Below, piece by piece: positions 1 through 41,475 of a stretch of 41,475 nt of DNA. The position numbers and the translations under genes are program-made. The first letter of the stretch is position 1. Each line of letters starts with the position of its first letter. A model generated the notes under the pieces. That model was not told the DNA's origin. It worked only from the letters and a program-made list of their open reading frames with translations, and made no database searches. This DNA comes from a virus: the IMG/VR virus record IMGVR_UViG_3300001682_000073, positions 1-41,475 of that record, one strand, 5' to 3'.

Positions 1-88
1 AAATTCGTACCACAGTTTGCCGATCTCAATGTCGCCGACTTTAAGGATTAATTGAATCCCTTTATCGTTTTTGAAGCCCTTAACAATA
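1..88. repeat. 88-bp terminal direct repeat, identical to 41388..41475 (circular closure or terminal redundancy of the contig)
   Basis: Base-by-base comparison: aaattcgtaccacag...cccttaacaata occurs at both window ends. Confidence 0.95.
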
Positions 89-141: not shown

Positions 142-180
142 CTTATACCCGCCTTTCGGTATAATGCCTTAGAAATAAGA

Positions 181-239
181 AAAGCCGTAACAGGCTGCAA
201 GGCTATCAGCTTTTCGGGAGCGACCCTATTTACGGCTTT
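181..239 (-). promoter_or_regulatory. Long-range 10-bp stem (AAAGCCGTAA / TTACGGCTTT) enclosing 39 nt; on the minus strand it is followed by TTTTCTTATTT, ~30 nt upstream of the ATG at 141
   Basis: Perfect inverted repeat 181..190 / 230..239. Its function is not established (terminator, attenuator or processing site). Confidence 0.3.
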
Positions 240-1462: not shown

Positions 1463-1819
1463 ATGAATAAAGAAGAAATTGTCAGAGAATTTCTCTCAAA
1501 AGCCGGCAAAAAAGGCGGATCTGTGAAGTCCGAACGCAAAGCCCAAGCATCAAGGGAAAATGGTAAAAAAGGTGGTAGGCCGAAGTCAAAACATAAGAAT
1601 GGAGGATTCAAAATGAAAAAGGTATTAAAAAATGTTGAAATTGCTGACAAAGTTGTTAAGGAATTAGAAAAGAAAGGTTATGAAGTAAGTTATGAAAAAG
1701 TATTAGATTTGATTGACTTATCAAGAGGCCCGATTGCAGAAAAAAACGAAGAAGTGAACATTGCAGACTATGTCGAAGCGTTTGAGACTATCGAGCAAGA
1801 AAAAGAATTTAACAGATAA
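1463..1819 (+). CDS. Hypothetical protein with a basic KGG-type N-terminus (KKGGSVKSERKAQASRENGKKGGRPK); a possible internal start at 1613 has its own GGAGG
   Basis: AGGAGG RBS before 1463. The KGG/GRPK motif resembles stress-type KGG repeats. The gene lies on the opposite strand to its neighbours. Confidence 0.5.
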   Translation: MNKEEIVREFLSKAGKKGGSVKSERKAQASRENGKKGGRPKSKHKNGGFKMKKVLKNVEIADKVVKELEKKGYEVSYEKVLDLIDLSRGPIAEKNEEVNIADYVEAFETIEQEKEFNR

Positions 1820-1890
1820 TGCAGAGTGACGGGGCATTGCCCCGGTAATGCGGCGGCCCGGTCACAAGTCCGGGAGAAGGGAGGAAAGTA

Positions 1891-2139
1891 ATGATAACAC
1901 AGGCAACGTATAATTTAAGCGTTTCTTATTTAAAATCGCAACTTGATAAAATTCGGCAGTCCGAAAATTTAAACTACTTATGGGGTATCGCTCTTGAGCT
2001 TAATAGCAACAAAGTATTATCAAACGCAAAACTCCAAATTATTAGTAATCACTTATATAACCTAAAACAACGCAGGAATAGCAAAAGATTGGCGACTGTA
2101 AAAGAAATGCTTATCAGTTCAATCCAAACAATAGAATAA
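1891..2139 (+). CDS. Hypothetical protein, 82 aa
   Basis: GGGAGG RBS ~7 nt upstream, followed by a hairpin. Confidence 0.5.
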   Translation: MITQATYNLSVSYLKSQLDKIRQSENLNYLWGIALELNSNKVLSNAKLQIISNHLYNLKQRRNSKRLATVKEMLISSIQTIE

Positions 2140-31550: not shown

Positions 31551-32396
31551 TTACTCGCCAGAAGATTCGGCAGCAGGCTTAACAGGGATACAGATCAGTT
31601 CCTTCGGAACTACAACCTTTGCACCGCAAAGCATAAGACCCCTGTGAATGTCACCAAATCTCTTGGGATGCCTGATAACCTCAGACTGGTTGATCTGTTC
31701 AGCAAAGGCTATTGCCTTTTTGGTTCTGACAAGGCAGTAATGAACGCCGGCATTCTCAACAATGTTGTTGGAAACATAGATATCAAGGCCCCACAGCTTC
31801 TTAACAAAGCCGGTTTCCAATGTCTTGCTGTTGTCGGTGTCGGTCACGATTTTAGCAAGTACCAGCTTAGCGTACACATCAGGCGAAATTTCAAGATACT
31901 TGGTCTCGCCTTCCGGTACGTTGGCTTTCAGCATTTCCTTACTGGCAGCTGCAAGCAGAGCAAGAGCGTCAGCGCTTGTGAAAGCTGACTGGAAATCAGT
32001 AATGGTCTTTCCAGCGTCGGCATATTTACCGAACACAAACTGATCGGCATAATCAGACAGCTTGTATGCGGCATTCCTGATGTGGGCATTCTCGAAAGCC
32101 TGCATCTTGTCCATCTGTTTCTTGTCCACATCGTCAATGTAGAACTGGAACGCCTTGGATTCGGTGATGTCGAGGAACTGAGCAGAACCGTCAAGAATCT
32201 GCGGGTCGTCCATGTCCGTATTGCGGGTGTAATTGAACAATTCAACCTCGCCGGGGGTCAGAATCTTAACGCGATCGCCCTTGTCCTTTATAGAGCCTTC
32301 ATATTCTCTGTTACAGTGTTTAACTGCGATTGCTGCCTTTTCCCTTTCCTCAAGCAGCTTGGCATATACTATCTCAGGTATAAATTCGTATGCCAT
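31551..32396 (-). CDS. Major capsid protein (putative)
   Basis: A 281-aa ORF directly after the scaffold-like gene, with a GGGGAGTG RBS. Assigned by position and size. Confidence 0.6.
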   Translation of the reverse strand: MAYEFIPEIVYAKLLEEREKAAIAVKHCNREYEGSIKDKGDRVKILTPGEVELFNYTRNTDMDDPQILDGSAQFLDITESKAFQFYIDDVDKKQMDKMQAFENAHIRNAAYKLSDYADQFVFGKYADAGKTITDFQSAFTSADALALLAAASKEMLKANVPEGETKYLEISPDVYAKLVLAKIVTDTDNSKTLETGFVKKLWGLDIYVSNNIVENAGVHYCLVRTKKAIAFAEQINQSEVIRHPKRFGDIHRGLMLCGAKVVVPKELICIPVKPAAESSGE

Positions 32397-33366: not shown

Positions 33367-33972
33367 TTATGAGGTTAATTCCTTCCACTTCAAATAGTGG
33401 GCTTCTGTTACGACTTCCGTATTGCAATGTCCGCATATCAGCGTTGTATCGCAATAGATTTTGAAGCCTTGTTCTCTCGCTCGTATGCAAAACGCTAAAT
33501 CTTCTCCGATTTTCGGTTCAGGGAAGAACCAGGGTTGCAGTACATTTTCAAAGACTTTCCGCTTTATGAGCGTACAAGCCATACCAACACCCTGAATCTC
33601 AACCAAACCCTTGGGGTAATCGAAATAGAACTCGGTTCCGTCACGATCGCATTTTTTGAATATGCACGGTTCATAGGGTGGGAAACGCTTAAAAGCAAGC
33701 CCTGAAACAATATCTTTGTCGTGTTCAAGCAATCTAACAAGTAAATCCATCGGGACCACCATGTCAGAGTCGATGAACAATAAAGCGTCATAATCGCCTT
33801 GCAACATTGTTTTTACTGCATTTTCCCTCGCCGTGTAGATAAGGCTCATTCCAATAGGGAGCATATCAATCTCTATACCTTTTGAACGTGCATAACAAGC
33901 CATAGCAGGTAAAGAATATGCCGCTTGCGGTGGTATGTAGCCTGTATATGGAATGCACATTAGAACCTTCAT
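33367..33972 (-). CDS. GT-A fold (family-2-like) glycosyltransferase
   Basis: MCIPYTGYIP..., the DxD motif in LLFIDSDMVVP, and the later EDLAFC motif. ~200-aa single domain. Confidence 0.55.
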   Translation of the reverse strand: MKVLMCIPYTGYIPPQAAYSLPAMACYARSKGIEIDMLPIGMSLIYTARENAVKTMLQGDYDALLFIDSDMVVPMDLLVRLLEHDKDIVSGLAFKRFPPYEPCIFKKCDRDGTEFYFDYPKGLVEIQGVGMACTLIKRKVFENVLQPWFFPEPKIGEDLAFCIRAREQGFKIYCDTTLICGHCNTEVVTEAHYLKWKELTS

Positions 33973-33979
33973 AAATCTT

Positions 33980-34021
33980 GCCGCTGGATACCCCTGAATT
34001 TATTCAGGGGAGGAAAGCGGC
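33980..34021. repeat. 42-nt compound hairpin at the left edge of the tnpB element (candidate left-end structure)
   Basis: GCCGCT-ggata-CCCCTGAAT-tt-ATTCAGGGG-aggaa-AGCGGC. Confidence 0.5.
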
Positions 34022-34037
34022 TTATCCCCCTTTTCTA

Positions 34038-34066
34038 TTGACTTATTTGCTCAATAGTAGTATAAT
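34038..34066 (+). promoter_or_regulatory. Near-consensus sigma70 promoter of tnpB (TTGACT, 17-nt spacer, TATAAT)
   Basis: Spacing counted exactly. It lies 25 nt upstream of the ATG at 34091, with AGGCAGGTG as RBS. Confidence 0.7.
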
Positions 34067-34090
34067 TAATCTTGAAAGGCAGGTGATATA

Positions 34091-35173
34091 ATGCTTTGCA
34101 CTCTCAAGATTAAACTTATAACAAGTAACGAACAATTTAATGCTTTGCTTGAAACTATGAAGGTATTTAATCAAGCATGTAACTATGCCAGTGAAATAGC
34201 TTTTAATTCTAAAACTTTTTCACAGGTTAAACTACATAAAATTGTTTATTATGATATTCGTGAGAAATTCGGATTATCTGCTCAAATGGCTGTTAGAGTT
34301 ATTGGCAAAGTTGTTGAAAGTTACCGTGTCGACAAGAAAACTCTGCATACCTTTAAAGAAACTGGAGCTATTGTTTATGATGAACGCATATTATCCTTTA
34401 AAGGCTTGGAATATGCTTCAATCCTTACTTTACAGGGCAGAATTGAAGTACCGATGATTATCAGCAAATATCATCAAGGCTTGCTCGCTGGCAGGCGTGT
34501 CCGTGGGCAGGCGGACTTAATCCTGCAAAACGGCACATTTTATCTCCTCCTCGTTGTTGATGTTCCCGAAAGCGAACCTAATTCTAAAAACGGCTTCATC
34601 GGCGTTGATTTTGGTATTGTAAATATTGCAGTTGATAGCACTGGCGAAGTATTCTCTGGCGATAAGGTTAACGGCCTTCGGAAGCGTTATGCTAAACTTC
34701 GTACTAAACTACAAAGTAAAGGCACTAAATCAGCTAAACGTTTATTAAAAAAACGTTCCAAGAAAGAAAAGCTATTTGCTCGTGATGTCAACCACTGTAT
34801 ATCTAAGAAGATTGTTGCAAAGGCTAAGGCACTCGGTTGCGGAATTACCCTTGAAGATTTAAAAGGCATCCGTAAACGCACCGAGAAAACGGTTAGAAAG
34901 TCTCAGCGTAGGCAACATTCTTCTTGGGCTTTTTGCCAGCTTAGGCAATTTATCGAATACAAAGCTAAAATTGCTGGTGTACCTGTTGTATTGGTTAACC
35001 CCAAGAATACTTCTCGCACCTGTCCAGTTTGTGGGTATATTGCTAAAGGAAATAGGCCATCAAGAGATAAATTCTGTTGTCAGGTTTGCGGTTACGCTGC
35101 GCCAGCCGACAACGTGGCTGCGGAGAATATCCGCAGGGCTGCTGTCAACCAGCCAGACGCGGCAACCGCTTAG
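34091..35173 (+). CDS. tnpB: TnpB (IS605 OrfB-family RNA-guided RuvC nuclease), 360 aa, catalytic motifs intact
   Basis: RuvC-I GVDFGIVNIAV, RuvC-II ITLEDLKGI, zinc ribbon CPVCGY...CCQVCGY, and RuvC-III APADNVAAENI. Confidence 0.85.
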   Translation: MLCTLKIKLITSNEQFNALLETMKVFNQACNYASEIAFNSKTFSQVKLHKIVYYDIREKFGLSAQMAVRVIGKVVESYRVDKKTLHTFKETGAIVYDERILSFKGLEYASILTLQGRIEVPMIISKYHQGLLAGRRVRGQADLILQNGTFYLLLVVDVPESEPNSKNGFIGVDFGIVNIAVDSTGEVFSGDKVNGLRKRYAKLRTKLQSKGTKSAKRLLKKRSKKEKLFARDVNHCISKKIVAKAKALGCGITLEDLKGIRKRTEKTVRKSQRRQHSSWAFCQLRQFIEYKAKIAGVPVVLVNPKNTSRTCPVCGYIAKGNRPSRDKFCCQVCGYAAPADNVAAENIRRAAVNQPDAATA

Positions 35174-35214
35174 GTTAGCTGCAAGCCTCCGACTTCAGTC
35201 GGGGGTAGTTGACA
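35040..35214 (+). ncRNA. Candidate omega-RNA (reRNA) scaffold overlapping the tnpB 3' end, ending in the right-end hairpin (35186..35205); the 5' limit is a guess
   Basis: By analogy with characterised TnpB loci. An 8-bp hairpin CCTCCGAC-ttca-GTCGGGGG starts 13 nt after the stop. No covariation analysis was possible. Confidence 0.35.
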
Positions 35215-35397
35215 TCAAACCTTCTTCCTGTCTGTTTTGTACTTGGTTGCGTTAGTCAGGTCGTAACCGCCAAACTCTGAGCATTTAGGGTTAATGCAAA
35301 CAAGTTTCAATTCCCTATAAACGTCTGTACTGCCAACATCGCTGACGAATTTACTGCCAGCTATTTTCAAGTCACTCCCGCAAACATCGCATTTCAT
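35215..35397 (-). CDS. 60-aa zinc-ribbon protein downstream of the portal gene
   Basis: MKCDVCGSDL...CINPKC. GGAGGTGG RBS before the ATG at 35397. Confidence 0.55.
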   Translation of the reverse strand: MKCDVCGSDLKIAGSKFVSDVGSTDVYRELKLVCINPKCSEFGGYDLTNATKYKTDRKKV

Positions 35398-35398
35398 T

Positions 35399-37276
35399 CT
35401 AAACCACCTCCTGAACATTATCCGCATACGGTCTTGCCTGATTCTGCGGTAATGGTGTCTGTGCGACTATCTGCCTTACCTGTTGCTCAAATGCGGCAGG
35501 GTCGTTCCTTGCAAACATTCTCAGGTTGTTTACGGTATCCTTTGGCAGATACGGCATAAGAGCGTTCAGCTTTTCGCTCATAAGCTGTTGCATCAACTGT
35601 TGTTCCTGCGCCCTCTGCTGTGCCTCTGCTCCCTCCCTGGCTTCGATTAATGCCTCTTTATCGGGTATCACGCCGTCAGGCAGGCGTTTCAGGTACTCGA
35701 CAAAGTTAATCAATTGCATTTGCAGCAGTTTATCAAGGCTTTGGATAGCTGCGGCTTCGTTCCAAATATTCGCCGGTCCGACTTCGATTTTCAGCTTAAA
35801 TTTGATGTCTTTCAAAACCGATGTATCAATCGGTACGAACTGCTGCTCCTTGCCGTTGTTTATCTGCATAATCCTTGTCGGGTAATCGGTGTACTTTGAC
35901 ATGAAGAAGTCAAGCCAGATCAAGCCAACATCCTCAACGTACTGATAGAACCTTCTCTTGATAGCGGCAAGCGGGACAACGGCGTTTTTGCTGTTTACTA
36001 TAATTGCCGATGTGTTGGTCGGGTTAGCTTCTCCAAGTGCTGATTCGTTTGCTCCCGCCATGTCCTTAGTGGTTTGGATGAACCATTGCATAAACTGCAT
36101 TACAACAGACGGAATCTGTGCAGGTTGCATATAGGCGGCCGCACCACCGACACCACCTGTATCTGTGCCATTGACAGGAATTGCCGTAGTAACATCGTTT
36201 GTCCACTGATTTATGCGGGTCTTGTCGTATAGCACCTTCGGATAGCCGTGAATCGTTATCCACAGGGCAAGAATGGCGGCTTGCTTGTTAATCATTATCT
36301 GATTCGGAATAAGTGAAGTCGCTTCTGCTTCGCCGTATGCCGAACCTTCGCGCTCGTACCAGTTCATAATGGCTACAGGATAACGGTGCAAACCAGTATC
36401 CCATTTCGGACGAACAACCACGCTTTGAGTACATTTCTCGGCAAAGATTTTCCACTCCTGCCCCTTATTGACTTTGATGGTCTGAATAACGGTTTCGCCA
36501 GTTACAGGATCAATAACTTCCTGCTGTTCTTCCTCGATAACGTCAACAAGTTCCTTCCACATATGAAGAAGGACGGTGCATTTTCCACTGTCCTCAATTT
36601 CGGACTTTGCCATGTCGCCGGTTTCGTTCTTCGTTTCATCGTCAGCCGCAATCAATTCAAGCTGTTCCTTCGTTGCTCCGTTCTTCTTGGCTTCACGGCG
36701 AACGTCCTCCACCTGCTGACGGAAGGACAATATTATGTACGGCTGAACAGGCTCATAAGCGTTATTGATCTCCGGCATGTTCGGGTCTCCGGGGAAGAAA
36801 TTGCTTGCGTTTATCAGTTCACCACAAATATCGCCCTGTTGACCGTCGCCAGCGTCTATTTTGTCATACCAATACCAGTACGACACCATAGCCCCGCTTA
36901 AAGCCGCCTTATTCAAACCCTTTTCGTTCATGGAATCCATTTTCAGCTTTTCCCACAGGGTCGCTGTGTGTTCTGTGAACAATCTGGCAATTTCTCGGTA
37001 CATCTGGCTTTGCGGATTGTTGTCGGTATCGCTTATCCAGTCTGCCGTGAACTTCATTTTGAGAAGGTCGGACATGACTTGGGAGCATTTCCAGTCAACA
37101 ATTCGCTTTGTGACATTGAGGATCGGCGTTGGGTGCTTGTTGGTCTTTATCCCACGCCAATGGTCGCCGGAGTAAAACCGCTCATTCTTGTCTGTCTTGG
37201 ACAGTAATGATATTTTGCTTTGGTATTCAAGACCTTTCTGATACCTTTGCCATGCTTTGGTCTGTTCTATATCCAT
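35399..37276 (-). CDS. Portal protein (625 aa)
   Basis: Assigned by size and position downstream of terL. GAGGTGA RBS before the ATG at 37276. Confidence 0.7.
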   Translation of the reverse strand: MDIEQTKAWQRYQKGLEYQSKISLLSKTDKNERFYSGDHWRGIKTNKHPTPILNVTKRIVDWKCSQVMSDLLKMKFTADWISDTDNNPQSQMYREIARLFTEHTATLWEKLKMDSMNEKGLNKAALSGAMVSYWYWYDKIDAGDGQQGDICGELINASNFFPGDPNMPEINNAYEPVQPYIILSFRQQVEDVRREAKKNGATKEQLELIAADDETKNETGDMAKSEIEDSGKCTVLLHMWKELVDVIEEEQQEVIDPVTGETVIQTIKVNKGQEWKIFAEKCTQSVVVRPKWDTGLHRYPVAIMNWYEREGSAYGEAEATSLIPNQIMINKQAAILALWITIHGYPKVLYDKTRINQWTNDVTTAIPVNGTDTGGVGGAAAYMQPAQIPSVVMQFMQWFIQTTKDMAGANESALGEANPTNTSAIIVNSKNAVVPLAAIKRRFYQYVEDVGLIWLDFFMSKYTDYPTRIMQINNGKEQQFVPIDTSVLKDIKFKLKIEVGPANIWNEAAAIQSLDKLLQMQLINFVEYLKRLPDGVIPDKEALIEAREGAEAQQRAQEQQLMQQLMSEKLNALMPYLPKDTVNNLRMFARNDPAAFEQQVRQIVAQTPLPQNQARPYADNVQEVV

Positions 37277-37332
37277 ATGTTTCACCTCATTTCTGAGCAA
37301 TAAACTTGCATTCAGACACTCCTTTCAGGTGT

Positions 37333-37579: not shown

Positions 37580-39199
37580 TTATCCTCCAAATCCTAAATA
37601 ATCTTCTGTCACTTCACCGCCGAAGTAGTTTTCATCATCATTCTGCGGTTTCTCAAAGTTGAAGTTATAATGCGGTTCGGGTTCCGGCAAGTTTGCGGCC
37701 ATAAAATAAAGCCAGTTCAATGCCTGGCTTCCTGCGTCAACTTCATCGTCTTTTTGTACTTTCTTTTCGGGTCTGAAAGCAGCGTACTGTTCGATGATAT
37801 CAGCCGCCCATTCGCATTTGACGAATACACCCGGCGATACCTCGATTTTGTCAGGTATGTATACGTTACCGGCCTCCCATAATGGCAGTACGGCGTTAAG
37901 GCGTTCGGCCTTGCTCTTTGTCGCCTTGATGGGAATCAAGCCGCTTACCTTGTCTCGCATGATGCGAATGACCGCTGGACCGTTGGCTTTGTCCTCGATA
38001 AGCTTTGCAATTGCATCAGGGTGCTTGCTGTTCCACTCATTGATATTGTCCATCGTTTTGACAATATCCATTCTGCCGCCTTTGTGGTCGATCAGGAAGT
38101 AATTAGCCCCTGATTTCGCCCAAACATGGCCGGCAACAGGATCAGTTCCGTCCGTATCCTTGAAAGAACAGTCCCACGATTGCACCTTTAAAGGCCAATA
38201 TCCAGGTCGCTGCATTTCAAGTGTAAGAGTAAACCGTTTCCACCATTCACGCTTGACCATATTGCCTTCTTTAGATGTCGGCCTTTGCTGATACAAGGCG
38301 TTCCATGCTCTCAAGCCACCCTCCATAGGGTCGTTCTCATATGATTGCTTTTTGCTTAACAACCAGTCAATGTCTTTCCCTGCTTCGGGCAGTAACGCCT
38401 CTCCGGCTTTCCTGCCAATTTCAGGCTCATCTTCTTCGGCAATGGCGGGGAAACGGATCTCGAACCATTTGTCTGGTTCGGTTTGGAGCAGATATCCAAT
38501 CAGATCATCCTCGTTCCAGCGGGTATGTACGATAACAAACTTGCATTTTGCCGAGGAACGGGTGCGGATCGTATTCAGCCATTCATCAATGACAAATTTC
38601 TGATACGTTGCGCTGTCTGCGTCCTGCCTGTTTTTGTACGGGTCGTCAACGAGGATAAGGTCGCCGGGGTTACCGGTAATAGCACCGCCTATACCTCGGC
38701 TTATCATACCGCCGTTGTACTTGTCGATTTCAAATTCTAAAGCTGATGATGAATACTTGGAAAGTTCAATGCCGAACAGTTCTTTACCAAATTCCTCGAT
38801 CTTCTGCTTGTTGCGGCGACCGAACTTAACCGCCAAATCCTCGCCGTAAGCTATGCTGATAACGTGCTTTGACGGGTTTTTGCCCAAGAAATAGCTTGGC
38901 AAAGTTTCGGTCAAGCAAGTTGACTTTCCATGCTGCGGTGGAATCGAAACAGTCACGCCCTCATATGGCTTGCCCTGTTCGTTCAAAAGCTCATTGTTTA
39001 GCAGTTTATCAACACAATCGCATATGTATTCCTGGAATTTTGCCAGTTTGAATGTCTTGTCGTAAGCATGGGTATATCGGACATAATCAGCATACCGTTT
39101 TGTTGCCTTTATTTTCAGTATTTCGTTGTCAAGCTTCGTAAGTTCTGCCAATAGCTTTAAACGGCGTTGTTCTTTTTGGCTCTTATTCACGGCAATCAC
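37580..39199 (-). CDS. terL: Terminase large subunit
   Basis: Walker A-like PPQHGKST, Walker B LILVDDP, and C-terminal nuclease acidic motifs (WDCSFKD, DDEVDA). GTG start. Confidence 0.85.
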   Translation of the reverse strand: MIAVNKSQKEQRRLKLLAELTKLDNEILKIKATKRYADYVRYTHAYDKTFKLAKFQEYICDCVDKLLNNELLNEQGKPYEGVTVSIPPQHGKSTCLTETLPSYFLGKNPSKHVISIAYGEDLAVKFGRRNKQKIEEFGKELFGIELSKYSSSALEFEIDKYNGGMISRGIGGAITGNPGDLILVDDPYKNRQDADSATYQKFVIDEWLNTIRTRSSAKCKFVIVHTRWNEDDLIGYLLQTEPDKWFEIRFPAIAEEDEPEIGRKAGEALLPEAGKDIDWLLSKKQSYENDPMEGGLRAWNALYQQRPTSKEGNMVKREWWKRFTLTLEMQRPGYWPLKVQSWDCSFKDTDGTDPVAGHVWAKSGANYFLIDHKGGRMDIVKTMDNINEWNSKHPDAIAKLIEDKANGPAVIRIMRDKVSGLIPIKATKSKAERLNAVLPLWEAGNVYIPDKIEVSPGVFVKCEWAADIIEQYAAFRPEKKVQKDDEVDAGSQALNWLYFMAANLPEPEPHYNFNFEKPQNDDENYFGGEVTEDYLGFGG

Positions 39200-41011: not shown

Positions 41012-41475
41012 CGCCTTGACTATTTTCTTTTGATTTTTTGGCTCGTCCCTTCTTTATAAAGTCTCTTGACAGCTTGTAACCGTCCTTGTCGTGGGAGAGA
41101 ATGCCGTATTCTTTCAGTTTGTTCACAATCTCAGCCGTTTTAGCCCTGCTCTTACCGAATATGTCTATGAAGTCCTCAAACCGTAACGGCTTTTTCTTGC
41201 GTTTATACTTCAATAATCCGGTGTGCCATGAAGTTTTGCTGAGAAGCGGCCATAAGTAACCTAATATCTCATAATCAGGTTTTTTCTCGTTGATGAACTT
41301 ATCTAAGTCTCGTTCAACTACCATGTAATACGATGGCTTACCGCCGGTCCTACTTTTGCTTCTGTCTGCGTCAGGCGGTTTGCGTTCAAATTCGTACCAC
41401 AGTTTGCCGATCTCAATGTCGCCGACTTTAAGGATTAATTGAATCCCTTTATCGTTTTTGAAGCCCTTAACAATA
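40995..41475 (-). CDS. C-terminal body of the junction-spanning winged-helix-like protein (N-terminus at 141..1; 41388..41475 duplicates 1..88)
   Basis: The frame is open upstream of the track M at 41324 through to the window end. C-terminus reads SRAKTAEIVNKLKEYGILSHDKDGYKLS (wHTH-like). Confidence 0.6.
   Translation of the reverse strand, partial: IVKGFKNDKGIQLILKVGDIEIGKLWYEFERKPPDADRSKSRTGGKPSYYMVVERDLDKFINEKKPDYEILGYLWPLLSKTSWHTGLLKYKRKKKPLRFEDFIDIFGKSRAKTAEIVNKLKEYGILSHDKDGYKLSRDFIKKGRAKKSKENSQGGEQFA
41388..41475. repeat. Second copy of the 88-bp terminal repeat
   Basis: Identical to 1..88. Confidence 0.95.

Follow-up and report, generated by a model that had tools for sequence, protein, structure and literature searches.

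A probable recent insertion of a tnpB-only IS200/IS605-family element in the head-gene operon of a metagenomic phage genome

Why does a single tnpB gene lie antisense within the head-gene operon of a phage, and what might the RNA-guided nuclease that it encodes do there? These questions are raised by the IMG/VR virus record IMGVR_UViG_3300001682_000073, whose 41,475 nucleotides we analysed over their full length and refer to as the window. A preliminary description of this DNA, made from its letters alone, had pointed to an intact TnpB element, equipped with a promoter of its own, among the late genes. We consider it highly probable that the segment at 33973..35213 (plus strand, 1241 nucleotides) is a recently inserted, non-autonomous element of the IS200/IS605 family, of the tnpB-only IS1341 type; this judgement covers both the identity of the element and the event of its insertion. 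TnpB-only insertion sequence (IS) elements are extremely common, many of them occurring in phages, and the element itself is of an ordinary, known kind.

The evidence for an insertion comes from relatives of the phage in which the site is empty. We found six sibling contigs (L005, L006, L116, L117, L121 and L122) that lack the element and whose flanks are 95-99% identical to those of the window. On either side of the insertion point, these siblings read GAACCTTCAT followed directly by G or A and then TCAAACCTTCTTCC, with nothing between, and TTCAT is present in all six; the site is TTCAT-(A/G)TCAAACC when empty and TTCAT-IS-ATCAAACC when occupied. Because the six contigs are uninterrupted at this site, the boundaries of the element, 33973 and 35213, are defined to the base, and the element is exactly the segment that is absent from the sibling phages. 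The preliminary description had correctly recognised a discrete element antisense to the late operon, but the ends that it gave (33975 and 35214) are displaced from those seen in the empty sites and in the independent copies described below. The insertion lies 3' of TTCAT (33968..33972, plus strand), the transposon-adjacent motif (TAM). This motif is phage sequence, and its three final bases, read on the other strand, are the start codon (ATG) of a glycosyltransferase-like gene. We found no target duplication, and the orientation is antisense to the head-gene operon. The insertion point itself is the 1-nucleotide spacer between the stop codon of a gene for a 70-amino-acid protein and the glycosyltransferase-like ATG. 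Because near-identical siblings carry the uninterrupted site, we conclude that this is a discrete element of the insertion type and not a syntenic core gene. The GC content is 0.38 in the element and 0.45-0.48 in its flanks.

The same boundaries recur in copies of the element found elsewhere. A copy with 99.5% nucleotide identity lies next to gyrB/gyrA in the chromosome of an uncultured Clostridia bacterium (L001); the GyrB of this host is at most 67% identical to those of named metagenome-assembled genomes (MAGs), and its placement is as 'uncultured Clostridia' only. Further close copies are present in L002, in two Geobacillus chromosomes (L004 and L025), in a Thermincola MAG (L023; 94% amino-acid identity) and at the ends of IMG/VR contigs (L115, L135 and L137), and the closest named homologues are from Geobacillus (84% amino-acid identity). 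The copies in L001, L002, L003, L115, L135 and L137 have nucleotide identities of 87-99.5% and differing flanks. In the independent copies the ends are exactly those of 33973..35213, and there is no similarity beyond them: on the right, similarity stops at ...GGGGTAGTTGAC (window 35213) and, on the left, it sets in a few bases past TTCAT or TTCAC. With unchanged spacing to the left-end hairpin, the independent copies L003 and L115 carry TTCAT, and L004, L025 and many distant copies carry TTCAC; these motifs agree with those of the G. stearothermophilus IS605 network (PMC10055086). Since the boundaries recur in independent copies and the Pfam matches given below exceed their curated cut-offs, the finding cannot be attributed to chance.

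The junctions also bear on whether a repeated IS could have been misjoined into the phage contig during assembly. The IS is repeated in these communities, the assemblies of L001, L002, L115, L135 and L137 end inside it, and the window is itself a metagenomic assembly. However, the junctions are exact on both sides, the six siblings have the two flanks joined to the base, and the junction obeys the IS200/IS605 rule (3' of TTCAT, no duplication), which a chimera would not recreate. We regard an assembly artefact as extremely improbable.

Two sets of observations on copies and shared ends were made alongside. The 87% copy in L003 (9879..11127 of JARKUL010001585.1, GCA_029972165.1), which likewise follows TTCAT, resides in an unrelated phage-like contig that encodes Thy1, Dam and an amidase with SLH; it lies between early genes and convergent lysis genes. 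The right-end 23-mer gave 13 matches among viral contigs, most of which share just the last 40-80 nucleotides and belong to other element families, and these matches were unusable as further copies. The exact 23-mer also terminates IscB (RRXRR plus HNH) and IsrB-like (RRXRR only) elements, as resolved in L124, L132 and L134; for one more IMG/VR contig that carries it, L136, the IscB/IsrB-type assignment comes from the open reading frame (ORF) alone. In the IscB/IsrB-like elements the ORF begins 198-295 nucleotides within the reverse-complemented end.

The ends of the element in the window have the architecture of the IS200/IS605 family: subterminal hairpins on the same strand, and no terminal inverted repeats. 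The left end carries the 42-nucleotide compound hairpin that had been proposed from the sequence (33980..34021, plus strand), with an outer stem (33980-84/34017-21, GCCGC/GCGGC) and an inner stem (33991-99/34002-10, CCCCTGAAT/ATTCAGGGG). The right-end hairpin (35186..35205, plus strand) was also present as proposed, but starts 12 nucleotides past the tnpB stop codon and not 13. The left-end hairpin (33991-34010) lies 18 nucleotides inside its end, and the right-end hairpin 7-8 nucleotides inside. When about 20 homologous elements were read directly from their sequences, pairing in the left-end stems was seen to be kept by compensatory changes; the right-end hairpin also covaries in homologues, and every relative that we inspected has the left-end hairpin about 100 nucleotides upstream of tnpB. 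The left-end compound hairpin is presumed to be the TnpA recognition structure, on the top strand. Membership in the IS607 family was rejected, since the window holds no Resolvase domain and both ends have hairpins of the IS605 type.

We found no transposase to accompany these ends. Among the 64 ORFs of at least 100 amino acids in the window, none contains a Y1_Tnp (PF01797), serine recombinase/Resolvase or integrase domain, as had been noted for Y1 and serine TnpA, and the element holds a single ORF, with no Y1 (HUH) TnpA of its own. Because no TnpA is encoded, the element is non-autonomous and of the IS1341 type, as are most tnpB elements. In the contexts of the P0023 and P0090 homologues, which we inspected, we found no autonomous relative with a neighbouring Y1 TnpA. 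The earlier statement that the element is immobile by itself holds in that TnpA is missing; however, to judge from its sequence, the element has intact IS200/IS605 ends, and a host cell that supplies TnpA could mobilise it in trans.

The P0023 (L139-L148) and P0090 (L149-L158) homologues, with 60-70% amino-acid identity, were each seen in 10 or more contigs, always at the same position. One of the two belongs to a Paenibacillus mobile element, with TraG and Rha neighbours, and the other lies among small genes in a phage-like block that gives a faint Mor match; both are antisense to all of their neighbours, like tnpB in the window.

Is the product of the element's gene, tnpB (34091..35173, plus strand; 360 amino acids), an intact TnpB? 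Profile matches, catalytic and zinc residues and a predicted fold all indicate that it is. The product matches the Pfam families OrfB_IS605 (PF01385; 39.5 bits, cut-off 30.5) and Cas12f1-like_TNB (PF07282; 71.5 bits, cut-off 26.3) and the PHROG 'transposase' families 506 and 12300, and 246 phage records match this TnpB. Residues D173 (GVDFG; 34607-09), E255 (LEDL; 34853-55) and D340 (ADNVAAENI; 35108-10), together with C311, C314, C330 and C333 of the zinc ribbon (CPVC...CQVC), align with the catalytic and zinc positions of solved Cas12f/TnpB chains. We checked residue conservation in sets of 40 and 120 homologues: D173, E255 and C311 are identical in 120/120 close homologues, and D340 and the other three cysteines in 116-119 of the 120. 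An AlphaFold2 model (pLDDT 84.4), when compared with the PDB by Foldseek, matched AsCas12f (8dzj; E 1e-20, TMq 0.64) as well as the TnpB proteins of ISFba1 (8iaz) and ISDra2 (8h1j and 8exa). The preliminary description had proposed the full TnpB layout with every catalytic element present; profile search, structure-chain alignment, homologue conservation and structure prediction agree with it, placing the protein in the TnpB/OrfB family with its RuvC residues aligned.

The tnpB gene is the only long, non-overlapping plus-strand gene from about position 19 kb to the end of the window; all further plus-strand ORFs in this region that reach 100 amino acids lie inside longer minus-strand genes. 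The near-consensus promoter that had been described for it was recovered (34035..34066, plus strand; predicted), with a -35 box, TTGACT, at 34038-43, a 17-nucleotide spacer and a -10 box, TATAAT, at 34061-66. Its boxes (34038..34066) match 11 of 12 consensus positions; this is the sole strong match in the 2.6 kb scanned, and it recurs in homologues. A palindrome, CTATTGA-N9-TCAATAG (34035..34057), overlaps the -35 box and could be an operator. Its ATTGA...TCAAT part is conserved in sequence, without covariation, in many homologous elements. Repressors of the Arc type reportedly bind IS605 tnpB promoters across the -35 box; no arc gene was found in the window. We also noted a 13-nucleotide inverted repeat (34066..34078/34101..34113, plus strand; 92% complementary) that brackets the tnpB Shine-Dalgarno sequence and ATG in the mRNA and may restrain translation.

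The 3' end of the element appears to encode an RNA as well as the end of the protein. Its last ~100 nucleotides contain four predicted helices, two of them within the coding region: 35118-23/35131-36, 35137-41/35150-54, 35159-66/35174-82, which crosses the stop codon, and 35185-93/35198-206, which is the right-end hairpin (all plus strand). We assessed covariation in 16 homologous elements, whose TnpB proteins have 47-89% identity, and found by RNAalifold that 19/22 pairs show compensatory changes; when the fourth helix was added, 93% of cells pair and 23/28 pairs have double changes. As controls, we evaluated shuffled and slid alignments: 0/500 shuffles were as good, and slid partners pair at 31-43%. 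The single-sequence fold of the region gave z = -3.9. Only the terminal hairpin is required by TnpA; that the inner helices covary as well therefore points to an RNA, which would be an omega-RNA scaffold. Covariation thus supports the prediction of a structured 3' RNA, the omega-RNA scaffold, that includes 35118..35213 (plus strand) and ends in AGTTGAC. At gathering thresholds, Rfam gave no match at the element, and no family matched the sense strand of the omega-RNA. Permissive thresholds yielded a single match, to HEARO on the minus strand (35048..35213), which was sub-threshold (28.7 bits against 83) and on the wrong strand, and a minus-strand RNA was rejected; the match is probably explained by the right end common to IscB elements.

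In IS605 elements the TnpB guide is encoded immediately 3' of the right end, in the flanking DNA. At this locus the predicted guide is ATCAAACCTTCTTCCT (35214..35229, plus strand); the sequence comes from the phage, lies antisense to the last (3') part of the 70-amino-acid gene and is unique in the window. We found that TTCAT plus ATCAAACCTTCTTCCT is the empty site of L121, with a match over 22/22 nucleotides, and that L005, L006, L116, L117 and L122 have a single mismatch, at guide position 1 (G versus A; window 35214). This position is both the base directly after the TAM and the spacer between the two genes, and it is polymorphic in the empty siblings, being G in five and A in L121; the polymorphism could be neutral or could affect targeting. 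The carrier genome would not be a target, because TTCAT there precedes the left-end sequence.

A guide complementary to operon DNA, in an element that is antisense within the late operon, might suggest a nuclease-dead, RNA-guided regulator of phage late genes, as in the TldR proteins. However, the zinc ribbon and all three residues of the D173/E255/D340 triad are intact, the element has bona fide IS ends with a TAM, and the guide has no TAM-flanked target in the occupied genome. From the intact catalytic triad and transposon ends, we rejected TldR membership, and we see next to no chance that the element acts as such a regulator.

What does the insertion do to the phage? On the minus strand, the empty siblings read ...GGAAGAAGGTTTGA(C/T)ATGAAGG, which comprises a Shine-Dalgarno-like stretch, the stop codon of the 70-amino-acid gene, one base and the glycosyltransferase-like ATG. 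In the occupied genome, this ATG is cut off from the upstream GGAAGAAGG/stop-start junction and is preceded by ...CCAGCGGCAAGATTT, without a Shine-Dalgarno sequence. Comparison of the empty and occupied junctions thus bears out the earlier suggestion that the glycosyltransferase gene was left without one. No minus-strand intrinsic-terminator-like sites were predicted inside the element, and read-through of the late operon is therefore plausible. The phage probably bears a cost, in that the glycosyltransferase-like gene has lost its ribosome-binding context and late transcription has to cross 1.24 kb while opposed by a strong convergent promoter. The gene is probably accessory, since some more distant relatives lack it.

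How might an element of this kind behave among the siblings of its phage? Since the phage encodes no transposase, a Y1 TnpA from the host must have inserted the element, as single-stranded DNA, 3' of TTCAT in one phage lineage; for what would follow, we propose, by analogy with published TnpB mechanisms, this sequence of events. The tnpB mRNA would be processed to yield the omega-RNA, with a 16-20-nucleotide guide that copies the flank ATCAAACCTTCTTCCT, and TnpB-omegaRNA would cut DNA in which TTCAT is joined to a match to the guide, that is, the uninterrupted sites of siblings; the site in its own genome would also be cut should a host TnpA excise the element. If the cut were repaired from a genome with the IS, the element would be copied in, which would amount to homing, or gene drive, among co-replicating or co-infecting phage genomes, and IS-free genomes that were cut without repair would be lost. 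TnpB is known to process its own mRNA into omega-RNA (PMC10278001), to cleave the TAM-flanked donor joint, restoring the element (PMC10055086), and to drive the spread of IS605 among multicopy plasmids even when TnpA is absent (PMC11870625), and a 2026 review names co-infecting phages as theoretical targets of 'non-restorative homing' (PMC13565253). The many phage genomes that replicate in one cell are comparable to these plasmids. The homing or retention role that had been suggested for this nuclease is a published role of TnpB, and is not new; in the literature that we searched we found no experimental demonstration of TnpB homing in phages. At this locus, presence/absence polymorphism is seen among near-identical genomes, and the target of the guide is the empty allele. 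We put the homing or drive step, taken by itself and argued by analogy, at somewhat below an even chance.

If the proposal is extended to an active role in infection, TnpB-omegaRNA would serve as an RNA-guided drive or exclusion system among siblings, cutting IS-free TTCAT-ATCAAACC... sites and converting or eliminating the genomes that carry them. We hold this extension to be possible but doubtful. If true, the guide position-1 G (TTCAT-GTCAAACC..., the L005 type) in five of the six siblings would be a drive-resistant allele, and the locus would be the first natural case of TnpA-independent TnpB homing between viruses, with a resistance polymorphism in addition. The locus is a natural system with exact ends, a TAM, a predicted guide, an occupied genome and near-identical empty siblings, of which one offers a perfect target and the others are one base off; it would allow a direct test of TnpA-independent IS605 homing in phages, which has so far been shown in plasmids and proposed for phages.

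Several points weigh against our interpretation. We infer TnpB expression and DNA cleavage by the phage element from the published mechanism. The G at guide position 1 in five of six siblings may or may not block cleavage. One contig of this phage is occupied and six are empty, and there is no sign of actual spread in the phage population. The window was assembled from a metagenome; its terminal 88 nucleotides (1..88 and 41388..41475) are identical, which indicates that the assembly closes into a circle of about 41.4 kb, and the phage genome need not be viable. Finally, codon 253 (34847..34849), two residues ahead of catalytic E255, encodes Thr in the phage copy and Ala in 114/120 homologues. 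Compared with the bacterial copy that is 99.5% identical, it has three derived non-synonymous changes (T253 and two others) and two synonymous changes; with these three derived substitutions, as read from the sequence, TnpB activity is not guaranteed.

These substitutions could instead mark a dead or dying passenger: the element would have inserted, its TnpB would be inactive or irrelevant, and the copy would be a mildly deleterious hitch-hiker, to be lost in time. The A253T change beside E255 (T in 1/120 homologues), the three non-synonymous against two synonymous changes, the single occupied genome against six empty relatives and the polar effect of the insertion on the glycosyltransferase-like gene all fit such a passenger. 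They have to be set against a full-length ORF and against catalytic and zinc residues, promoter, ends and omega-RNA helices that are intact and nearly identical to those of other copies; moreover, S, V or T is found at position 253 in a few homologues, and five substitutions are too few to indicate relaxed selection. We consider a passenger unlikely.

Alternatively, TnpB-omegaRNA may have been recruited by the phage as a domesticated weapon, for superinfection exclusion or anti-defence. The predicted guide does aim at the phage's own close relatives, the sites of the P0023 and P0090 homologues, in mobile elements or phage-like contigs, are indeed fixed, and phage-borne tnpB has been the subject of speculation by other groups. 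Against recruitment, the transposon ends are complete, identity to a chromosomal copy is 99.5%, the closest siblings lack the element, the insertion damages an operon junction, and the guide is set by the insertion site rather than chosen, with no array or second guide. There is no specific support for the suggestion, made in the preliminary description, of recruitment against competing genomes, and we judge a domesticated weapon to be very unlikely.

The interpretation of a recently inserted, non-autonomous IS200/IS605 element can also be set beside known systems. The closest described, the ISGst-type elements of Geobacillus stearothermophilus (Meers et al., PMC10055086), are similarly non-autonomous and tnpB-only, with an omega-RNA that overlaps the tnpB 3' end and the right end, TTCAT/TTCAC-type motifs, and TnpB and IscB elements with common ends. 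Unlike these, the copy described here lies in a phage genome without TnpA in cis, and its transposon-end motif is TTGAC. ISDra2 is an autonomous element, with tnpA, and its TAM is TTGAT. The ISDra2 TnpB-omegaRNA complex (PDB 8H1J/8EXA; Karvelis et al., PMC8612924) resembles the predicted one here in fold, catalytic layout, 5' TAM and a guide taken from the right-end flank, and the end architecture of ISDra2 and IS608 is alike in having subterminal hairpins at both ends; however, sequence identity to ISDra2 TnpB is only about 15%, and the omega-RNA sequences are unrelated. The IS605 drive in multicopy plasmids (Mears et al., PMC11870625) is like our proposal in that a flank-reprogrammed TnpB cuts IS-free replicons without TnpA; it was shown in E. 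coli plasmids, whereas for phages it is a proposal only.

Among phage genes, the free-standing homing endonucleases of T-even phages (SegF, SegB and Mob) offer a parallel, as here too a nuclease gene lies between conserved phage genes and would cut the empty allele of a co-infecting relative. Unlike SegF, SegB and Mob, recognition in the present case would be RNA-guided and set by the insertion junction, and the gene probably arrived by transposition, keeping its ends. Other phage-borne tnpB genes (for example in Rhodothermus phage RM378, Thermus phage MN1, Lactobacillus phage iLp1308 and Anabaena phage A-1(L)) are homologous and annotated 'transposase', and PHROG families 506 and 12300 include them; their products are at most 45% identical to the TnpB described here, for which the empty site, ends, TAM and guide are all defined. 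As the locus illustrates, non-autonomous elements that encode RNA-guided nucleases can be carried from host to host by phages.

The late genes around the element are encoded on the minus strand and include those for the large terminase (37580..39199), a P22-type portal protein (35399..37300) and the major head protein (31551..32396). The gene for the 70-amino-acid protein (35215..35427, minus strand), a CxxC...CxxxxC protein, is upstream of the insertion in the late operon, and its stop codon, TGA at 35217..35215, is 1 nucleotide off the element's right end; Pfam and PHROG searches gave no family match for its product. The glycosyltransferase-like gene (33367..33972, minus strand) encodes a DxD motif, and its ATG abuts the left end of the element; the product matches a PHROG glycosyltransferase family (9e-19), and its Pfam glycosyltransferase matches are weak. 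Among cultured phages, Page and Pony of Bacillus megaterium come closest, with just 34% amino-acid identity in the portal protein, and megablast of the locus against GenBank phages gave no match.

Two structured RNAs were identified elsewhere in the window. An int-alpA RNA (RF02996; 48.8 bits, gathering threshold 35.8) lies at 167..236 on the minus strand; it is present though the ORFs of at least 100 amino acids gave no integrase domain, and ANT and Rha regulator domains were found. A type-P5 twister ribozyme (RF02684; 59 bits, gathering threshold 37.6) lies at 1820..1873 on the plus strand, in a block of small plus-strand genes, directly after the stop codon of the ORF at 1463..1819 and 17 nucleotides ahead of the ORF at 1891..2139.

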